IMG/VR virus record: IMGVR_UViG_2529292909_000008
Location: 1 to 13,427 of that record
From: a virus
Lineage: Duplodnaviria; Heunggongvirae; Uroviricota; Caudoviricetes
Length of the DNA stretch: 13,427 nt
Strand: one strand, 5' to 3'
Shown: positions 7,633 to 7,720 of the stretch, piece by piece
Layout of the letters: each line of letters begins with the position of its first letter
Numbering within the stretch: position 1 is the first letter of the stretch
Translations under genes and position numbers: made by a program
Notes under the pieces: model-generated
What the model was told of the DNA's origin: nothing
The model's input: the letters and a program-made list of their open reading frames with translations, nothing else
Database searches by the model: none

Positions 7633-7720
7633 GGCCGCATAACCTCCTGCTTTGTTGATGATATCTTTCTCGCCTAATCGATCGACAAAAACGATCGATT
7701 CGATGTGTTTAATTGATACA
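7633..7720 (-). promoter_or_regulatory. com-mom upstream control region with paired GATC (Dam) sites
   Basis: GATC at 7680-7683 and 7693-7696 inside a short repeat (CGATCGAcaaaaaCGATCGA), 48-66 bp upstream of the com start codon. No strong -35 hexamer is visible, consistent with an activator-dependent promoter as described for Mu Pmom. Confidence 0.35.

Follow-up and report, generated by a model that had tools for sequence, protein, structure and literature searches.

A predicted two-GATC variant of Mu-type Dam/OxyR control upstream of com-mom in an Escherichia coli Mu-like prophage

The window, i.e. the whole stretch of 13,427 nucleotides that was analysed (IMG/VR record IMGVR_UViG_2529292909_000008), comprises Escherichia coli chromosome and, adjoining it, the right end of a Mu-like prophage oriented on the minus strand. 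The presence of sbmA and yaiW and the match of the region to E. coli genomes identify the host as E. coli, of which dam and oxyR are core genes, neither of them located inside the window. yaiW is the insertion locus of the prophage, the end of which lies near position 6613. The genes of the window considered here are the following.

5271-6437: sbmA, chromosomal part
6450-6617: truncated yaiW, chromosomal part
6741-7478, minus strand: mom, 245 amino acids (PF25680, E 2.4e-77), overlapping the end of com
7432-7632, minus strand: com, encoding a 66-amino-acid zinc-ribbon translational activator (Pfam Zn_ribbon_Com PF10122, E 2e-12)
11815-11243: gin-like invertase gene, prophage part
Accessory genes DUF6645, DUF1378 and DUF826, prophage part

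A sister prophage, 99.4% identical to the window across 6.8 kb of prophage DNA, sits in elfC of strain NCCP 13905, where this copy is part of a complete Mu-like prophage of roughly 39 kb (annotated coordinates); the differing insertion sites (yaiW and elfC) fit Mu-like transposition. The com upstream region of the window is of a type found in 233 of 5426 complete E. coli genomes (~4%), many of which are O157:H7 and other Shiga-toxin-producing strains. The Com zinc-ribbon ORF (7632-7432) overlaps the downstream Mom-family ORF (7478-6741), which is the arrangement of a com-mom operon; relatives of com carry the RefSeq name 'Com family DNA-binding transcriptional regulator', and mom shares about 71% DNA identity with Mu mom. 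Phage DNA modified by Mom resists many restriction enzymes, and Mom is toxic when expressed at the wrong time (PMC3378877, PMC4461284). Since Mom is protective yet toxic, the gating of its expression decides when the prophage is protected or harmful.

The elements of the com upstream region, listed from com outwards, are the following.

7643-7648, minus strand: Shine-Dalgarno sequence AGGAGG of com, read from the sequence and kept in all variants except L028 (AGAAGG)
7658-7663, minus strand: best -10 candidate TATCAT from a heuristic weight-matrix scan, with a predicted start near 7651/7650
7676-7700: perfect 9-N7-9 palindrome AATCGATCG-N7-CGATCGATT, an inverted repeat with 100% complementary arms that holds both GATCs
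7680-7683: promoter-proximal GATC (Dam site), equivalent to GATC III of Mu and agn43 and to GATC4 of gtr by alignment with Mu, agn43 and gtr
7681-7695, minus strand: proximal OxyR-like half-site ATCGTTTTTGTCGAT, matching 7 of 10 positions of the half-site consensus ATAGnTnnnAnCTAT, in the same register as gtr half-site C
7683-7688, minus strand: weak -35-like hexamer TTGTCG with a 19-bp spacer, overlapping the proximal half-site and the GATC at 7680-7683
7693-7696: second GATC (Dam site), equivalent to GATC II of Mu and agn43 and to GATC3 of gtr in the same alignment
7712-7726, minus strand: distal OxyR-like half-site ATTTGTTGTATCAAT, 7 of 10, free of GATC, its centre 31 bp upstream of that of the proximal half-site
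7713-7741, minus strand: alternative, weaker promoter candidate ATGACT-17-TATCAA (weight-matrix score 4.2), with which the GATCs would fall at about +10 to +27, in an agn43-like manner
7904-7933, minus strand: intrinsic-terminator-like hairpin with a 13-bp stem and a T-rich tail, upstream of the com regulatory region

The hairpin at 7933-7904 implies that com-mom would need its own promoter between 7900 and 7640. The original prediction had noticed two GATC sites 13 bp apart in a short repeat upstream of com, and this is indeed what lies there: the GATCs at 7680-7683 and 7693-7696 are separated by 13 bp from start to start and are located 48-64 nt upstream of the com ATG, while the repeat extends to 68 nt upstream. 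The interval then proposed, 7633-7720, holds both GATCs but is slightly too short, since the conserved element reaches 7726/7727. The arms of the palindrome (7676-7684 and 7692-7700) are 7 nt apart, and the same stretch can alternatively be read as a 10-nt direct repeat with 13-bp spacing. The 13.4-kb window contains a single GATCN9GATC, where 0.07 would be expected (at least one occurrence in 13 of 200 shuffles), while the overall density of GATC in the window is ordinary (43 observed, 46 expected). A second GATC cluster at 7804, 7815 and 7850 was considered as a counterpart of the three sites of Mu and rejected; it lies inside a plus-strand pseudogene, has spacings of 11 and 35 bp, and is missing from the L011 and L017 sub-lineages, hence it is not part of the module.

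That the palindrome is an RNA hairpin in the com leader, or a terminator, instead of a protein-binding site is hardly credible. The predicted fold does contain a 9-bp hairpin, and 7676-7700 came up as terminator-like on the plus strand in a consensus scan, but the folding energy is no better than that of shuffles (z = -0.53), the coding (minus) strand has no U-tract after the hairpin and no Rfam match was obtained, on which grounds this reading was rejected. Moreover, the plus strand has nothing needing termination, and with the favoured (predicted) start the palindrome would not be transcribed at all.

A search for an OxyR-like motif, suggested along with the original prediction, returned a bipartite match at 7726-7681 of the minus strand with 7 of 10 consensus positions in each half-site. 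Its centres are 31 bp apart, as a consensus match to the reduced-form arrangement with centres about 32 bp apart, and the predicted OxyR site includes two GATCs (proximal half-site 7695-7681), as in promoters of the Dam/OxyR type. The probability of reaching at least 7 of 10 by chance is 0.003 overall and 0.011 among AT-rich 15-mers. The site at 7726-7681 ties for the top bipartite score in the window, with a degenerate consensus and a match of only 7 of 10 per half-site; a score of 14 of 20 is reached by only three distinct sites of the window (three spacings, both strands), two of which are in the com upstream region. The scores of the two half-sites, of 10 each, are 7 + 7 in the window, 7 + 7 in Mu, 8 + 8 in agn43 and 10 + 8 in gtr BC.

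The distal half-site stands out in a comparison of regions. When 16 different com lineages together with agn43 and gtr (18 regions) were aligned on the 13-bp GATC pair and every upstream 15-mer was scored against the half-site consensus, a sharp single peak appeared 31 bp upstream (mean 5.94 of 10 as against about 2.7 elsewhere), to be read with the partial relatedness of the com lineages in mind, so that it does not represent 16 independent events. Downstream of the GATC pair no comparable half-site peak was seen in the 18 aligned regions. A second OxyR-like half-site is thus present 31-32 bp upstream in all 16 com lineages, agn43 and gtr, the offset being 31 bp in Mu and most com lineages and 32 bp in L034, L100, agn43 and gtr. 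This half-site geometry explains the GATC spacings across com lineages: the 3' arm of the distal half-site holds any GATC located 18-19 bp upstream of GATC II, and its 5' arm any located 31-32 bp upstream. Spacing typical of the oxidised form of OxyR (N7) was also considered, as ATCAATTAAACACAT-N7-ATCGTTTTTGTCGAT scores 13 of 20 and 7748-7712 scores 14 of 20; it was not adopted because no sharp peak occurs at 22 bp across the lineages (mean 3.9).

Of the systems compared, the repressing OxyR(BC) site of P22 gtr has the layout most like that upstream of com. That operon has each of its 13-bp GATC pairs confined to a single OxyR half-site (ATAGxTxxxAxCTAT), with 32 bp from one half-site to the next; GATC3 is at -46 and GATC4 at -33, and in gel shifts OxyR no longer binds once the DNA is methylated (PMC2909390). 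The OxyR(BC) site and the window share a 13-bp GATC pair in one half-site together with a GATC-free half-site about 32 bp upstream, a last GATC about 33 bp before the start (a predicted start in the case of the window) and a half-site in place of the -35. The gtr operon differs in having a third half-site A with a second GATC pair, which creates two OxyR positions, activating AB and repressing BC; a third half-site at 31-32 bp was not seen in the window. The gtr-regulated genes are unrelated to com-mom.

The core of agn43 (flu), tatcGATCGTTTATATCGATCGATAAG, is identical to the palindrome region of the window in 23 of 27 bases by manual count, and the two cores align nearly identically (GATCGTTTATATCGATCGATAAG against GATCGTTTTTGTCGATCGATTAG). 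In agn43 a single OxyR site works as a repressor whose binding is blocked by methylation, and the predicted site of the window is also single. agn43 has three GATCs (19 + 13 bp) whereas the predicted site of the window has two, and in agn43 the annotated isrC/agn43 start is at GATC I with the operator downstream of the -10, whereas the favoured promoter of the window is downstream of the operator; only the ATGACT-17-TATCAA candidate would make the arrangement of the window agn43-like. In Salmonella opvAB the half-sites are 32 bp apart, the spacing canonical for reduced OxyR, and one half-site matching 7 of 10 is functional (PMC4856963). OxyR half-sites overlap GATCs there, similarly to the window, but opvAB has four half-sites, single GATCs per site, and OxyR as an essential activator. 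The 31-bp half-site spacing of the window is unlike the 32 bp of gtr, opvAB and agn43.

In Mu, OxyR represses mom on unmethylated DNA. Dam/OxyR control has been reported for Mu mom (PMC3378877), which shares with the window the same operon (com-mom at the right end of a Mu-like genome), the 31-bp half-site spacing and the 7 + 7 score. Upstream of Mu com, the order is GATC-18-GATC-13-GATC followed by 40 bp to the -10 hexamer TAAGAT. The alignment of the window with Mu spans ATCAATTAAA...ATCGATCG-N7-(C/A)GATCGATTA (window ATCAATTAAAcacatcgaATCGATCGtttttgtCGATCGATTA, Mu counterpart ATCAATTAAATCGATCGgtaatacaGATCGATTA), with the flanks ATCAATTAAA...GATCGATTA shared and the same 13-bp spacing of GATC II and III, and it follows from this alignment that the two GATCs of the window are GATC II and III of Mu. 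GATC I is missing from the window, so that the predicted operator has two GATCs against the three (18 + 13 bp) of Mu, and the 40-bp segment from GATC III to the -10 of Mu is replaced by 16 unrelated bp, then TATCAT. With 16 bp between the last GATC and the -10 candidate, the predicted operator overlaps the core promoter, unlike in Mu. That Mu-like Dam/OxyR logic may apply here with a different site layout, as originally proposed, is supported by the homology of GATC II and III, by the two 7-of-10 half-sites and by the geometry recurring in the 16 com lineages, agn43 and gtr.

The statement that the region lacks a recognisable -35 also holds, as a minus-strand scan between the terminator at 7933-7904 and com gave no sigma-70 promoter agreeing with the consensus at 9 or more of 12 positions. 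With a simple weight matrix based on approximate consensus frequencies taken from general knowledge, TTGTCG-19-TATCAT is the top minus-strand candidate between the terminator and com (9.33, as against 9.34 for the annotated P22 gtr promoter, scores of at least 9 occurring about 0.9 times per kb per strand). Counted from its predicted start near 7651, the positions would be about -45 and -32 for the GATCs and about -68 and -37 for the half-site centres, to be compared with -70/-38 for the repressing gtr BC. Other com lineages likewise have a strong -10 (TATACT, TATCAT or TATAGT) after the proximal half-site, 7-9 bp past the last GATC. The -10 candidate itself is poorly kept, with CATCAA or TATCAA in many close relatives. 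Either the promoter is elsewhere, e.g. at ATGACT-17-TATCAA, or expression differs between the relatives. ATGACT-17-TATCAA is kept in all family variants, with ATGACA in L011 and L017, and is our second choice, being conserved but low in score. Each candidate shares bases with one half-site, the best with the proximal and the alternative with the distal, and the predicted operator would consequently overlap the promoter in either case.

The position of the promoter-proximal GATC inside the -35-like hexamer of the best candidate raises the unlikely alternative that Dam acts directly, without OxyR, the methylation of GATC at the -35/spacer altering RNA polymerase binding as at the IS10 transposase promoter, for which control by hemimethylated GATC is cited in PMC4659465. 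Direct action of Dam leaves unexplained why a GATC-free half-site is conserved exactly 31 bp upstream, why the core so closely resembles those bound by OxyR in agn43 and gtr, and why the 13-bp palindromic register stays fixed in lineages that differ in the distance to the -10 element (7 to 40 bp). The lack of a good -35 in the com promoter could also mean that OxyR binds as an activator, similarly to opvAB, with the unmethylated state ON and the methylated state OFF. This is improbable, since the half-site centres at about -68/-37 (predicted start) match the repressing gtr BC and not the activating AB (PMC2909390), and since OxyR is a repressor in the homologous agn43 system and Mu mom is reported to be under Dam/OxyR control (PMC3378877).

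The Mu-type Pmom combines a poor -35, a 19-bp spacer and a T6 run in that spacer. The candidate TTGTCG/TATCAT would have a poor -35 with a 19-bp spacer, and the only T-run (T5) is between the GATCs, outside the spacer. In Mu, C has its site in the interval from the GATC cluster to the -10, where it overlaps the -35. Mu has its poor -35 and its T-run within the 40-bp segment, in a promoter that C binds over (PMC3378877, PMC4461284). The corresponding Mu segment, TTATGCCCCAATAACCACAC..., is absent from the com upstream region, in which no C site of the Mu type is seen. A C-like activator gene, searched for as the original prediction had advised, is present in the sister prophage, while the window stops short of the regulatory genes: a single gene of the Mor/C family, outside the window and just ahead of the lysozyme gene, has a 140-amino-acid product that shares 40% identity with Mu C (E 5e-38), of which it is an orthologue, and 27% with Mor. 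Common to the lys and I promoters of this prophage is CCGCAAAnCCnGCCCC with a TTAnGCT -10 after it, a motif that rests on these two promoters only, as a matching P-gene promoter was not found in the sister prophage. In the window scan, no match to the lys/I promoter motif was found near com within 3 mismatches, and TCCGCAAAWC was also absent near com; a C-activator site near com was consequently rejected. An exact TCCGCAAAAC occurs at 11228-11219, upstream of the DUF6645 gene, the unit of which is separated from com by the terminator at 7933-7904. The expectation that the promoter depends on a C activator, as in Mu, is not supported by what the promoter region contains: the 40-bp segment of Mu is replaced and the lys/I motif is absent near com.

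The block 7727-7676 (52 bp), which coincides with the proposed 46-bp operator, is almost invariant in 14 distinct variants of the window family, while the next 25 bp downstream are variable and, in the L011 and L017 sub-lineages, the DNA beyond about 7741 (upstream) is unrelated. It is very unlikely that the element is a mere vestige of a Mu-like ancestor with no regulatory role left. A vestige would account for the loss of GATC I and of the C/-35 segment, for the decay of the -10 candidate in many relatives and for an O157:H7 genome that keeps com with mom gone, but it would not account for a nearly invariant 52-bp block with both flanks variable or replaced, and two GATCs in one half-site suffice for methylation-sensitive OxyR binding at gtr BC (PMC2909390).

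Mom-encoding loci were gathered from IMG/VR (80 loci) and from GTDB genomes (64 loci). The GATC spacings, counted in 84 distinct com upstream regions, are the following.

18 and 13 bp: 18 regions
18 bp: 15 regions
13 bp: 12 regions
31 and 13 bp: 2 regions
19 and 13 bp: 2 regions
GATC absent: 29 regions

Spaced GATCs, defined as 13, 18-19 or 31 bp apart within 400 nt upstream of mom, are present in 10 of 17 loci of Enterobacterales and in 2 of 4 loci of other gammaproteobacteria; they were found in none of 6 loci of Pseudomonas and in none of 33 loci of Desulfovibrio, alphaproteobacteria and others, with a background of 0.08 per kb in the flanks. Judged by established knowledge of where Dam occurs, this host distribution fits dependence on a Dam-proficient host. 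It also bears on the possibility that the palindrome is the operator of a phage-encoded dimeric regulator, i.e. a C/Mor-family activator or another prophage protein, the GATCs being incidental. A perfect 9-N7-9 palindrome, a poor -35 suggesting the need for an activator and the C orthologue of the sister prophage would agree with such a regulator, which we nevertheless regard as quite unlikely: the presence of the element tracks the host taxon, the same element precedes com in unrelated phage backbones (Mu, the P2-like phage Chuche and others) as well as the host-island gene agn43 and P22 gtr, which have no phage regulator in common, and the lys/I promoter motif differs from it and is absent near com. 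None of the alternatives discussed agrees as well with the conserved GATC-free distal half-site and the occurrence of the element in unrelated phage backbones and host genes.

We propose, as the probable reading of the locus, that the GATC pair is the promoter-proximal half of a 46-bp bipartite OxyR operator (7726-7681, minus strand) in front of com-mom, at which OxyR binding would repress and Dam methylation would relieve repression. OxyR, a LysR-type protein of the host, would bind ATTTGTTGTATCAAT and ATCGTTTTTGTCGAT, with centres 31 bp apart, as a reduced tetramer if both GATCs lack methylation and perhaps also in their hemimethylated state. It would then cover the -35/spacer of a weak com promoter, the one with TATCAT (7663-7658) as its -10 and a start near 7651, and keep it off, while Dam methylation of both GATCs would exclude OxyR and allow transcription of com-mom, after which Com would permit the translation of mom. 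Binding, methylation sensitivity, transcription start and direction of effect are all predictions of this scheme. Anatomy, homology, conservation and taxonomic distribution are observed features of the DNA, and as far as they reach, the predicted Dam/OxyR control of com-mom is supported.

The com upstream region probably has a rearranged layout of the known Mu-type Dam/OxyR control, the mechanism of which is already established. It appears to differ from Mu in having two GATCs confined to one half-site, an operator placed on the core promoter and no C site in view. No description of a two-GATC variant or of the 13/18/31-bp geometry across com-mom cassettes was found in the literature searched, nor were methylome or start-site data for the prophage of the window. 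If the two-GATC, C-less operator works as proposed, the three GATCs plus C of Mu would be one of several layouts, the others observed having spacings of 13, 18, 18/13, 19/13 and 31/13 bp and all sharing one OxyR half-site geometry. This variant would then offer a simple natural test case for whether an epigenetic switch can work with two GATCs in a single half-site, and for whether mom is phase-varying; the practical gain is modest, as the class of mechanism is textbook.

Phase variation of mom has been noted as unknown (PMC2909390). As a speculative extension, which we hold to be rather doubtful, com-mom in the prophage lineage of the window may lack C-dependent late timing and be switched solely by Dam/OxyR, forming a heritable ON/OFF module of the agn43/gtr kind in a subpopulation of lysogens, with the bipartite OxyR/GATC operator portable across the com-mom cassettes of Enterobacterales phages whatever their late activator. 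If true, a fraction of the cells would carry Mom-modified host and prophage DNA before induction. A scan of viral contigs for ATCGATCG-N7-CGATCGAT gave 57 matches, 29 of which have a com-like ORF after them. The remaining matches are GC-rich chance matches or belong to a recurrent non-com group without annotation.

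The DNA between gin and com in the window carries accessory genes, a terminator-like hairpin and a second GATC cluster:

11228-11219 (within 11190-11237), minus strand: TCCGCAAAAC, past the end of gin, with the DUF6645 ATG (11157) 62 nt further downstream
9101-11157, minus strand: DUF6645 gene, apparently in two pieces, a 499-aa ORF (11157-9658) and a 163-aa ORF (9592-9101)
7747-8046 and 8039-8245: a pair of plus-strand ORFs, divergent from com
7904-7933, minus strand: strong intrinsic-terminator-like hairpin with a 13-bp stem and a T-rich tail
7861-7870 and 7887-7896: perfect 10-nt inverted repeat TATGTAGTAT...ATACTACATA, its arms separated by 16 nt
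7804-7818 and 7850-7853: second GATC cluster, inside the plus-strand pseudogene
7638-7640, minus strand: out-of-frame ATG, 2 nt past the Shine-Dalgarno sequence and 8 nt ahead of the com ATG

The hairpin is located about 270 bp upstream of com, within a plus-strand ORF, and probably ends the transcript of the accessory genes, com-mom being thereby isolated from it. The inverted repeat lies directly past this terminator and is kept in most of the variants of the window family. As for the accessory genes, TCCGCAAAAC matches the first half of a motif that the sister prophage (strain NCCP 13905) has in both its lys and its I promoter, and the region is a possible late promoter, dependent on the Mu-type activator C, that would serve these genes. 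DUF6645 is annotated in the sister prophage as a single CDS of 2055 nt; its split in the window may reflect a frameshift or a pseudogene.

A Pfam search with the two plus-strand ORFs yielded no match, and in the RefSeq relatives the corresponding stretch is annotated as a hypothetical pseudogene, incomplete or frameshifted. In the two sub-lineages L011 and L017, unrelated DNA stands in place of the entire 7747-8245 stretch, with a mosaic boundary near 7741. The second GATC cluster comprises two GATCs with 11-bp spacing in an 11-nt direct repeat (AAAACGATCAT / AAAATGATCAT; 7804-7818) and a third one 35 bp from the pair. The whole cluster is missing in L011 and L017 and therefore lies outside the conserved com module. 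Close to com itself, the ATG at 7638-7640 starts a short ORF in a frame other than that of com, and is probably unused.

E. coli O157:H7 NE 1092-2 (L152, 1659-1912) has com together with the operator upstream of it, and mom is not annotated; a ycjN pseudogene occurs 53 bp past com, so that this copy has apparently lost mom or retains only a truncated one. In six mom loci (L094, L096-L099 and L126), which come from Yersinia, from Serratia and, by its label, in one case from Sphingomonas, a regex search found no com, and a GATC cluster is likewise absent. The Mom homologues of these loci show about 62-71% identity, and most of the loci share a GC-rich stretch with gggcgccccgg a short distance upstream of mom, which may represent another mode of mom control. 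Seven IMG/VR contigs (L162, L174, L180, L196, L201, L205 and L209) carry the same palindromic double GATC as lies upstream of com, ATCGATCG-N7-CGATCGAT, beside non-com genes; in most cases another GATC is found 18-19 bp from it. These elements may be additional phage operators of the Dam/OxyR type.

The prophage-chromosome junction was placed at about 6613-6617, within yaiW, of which a truncated 55-aa ORF is left. In other strains the same prophage end adjoins elfC, ycjN, citF and further genes, as expected from random Mu-like transposition.
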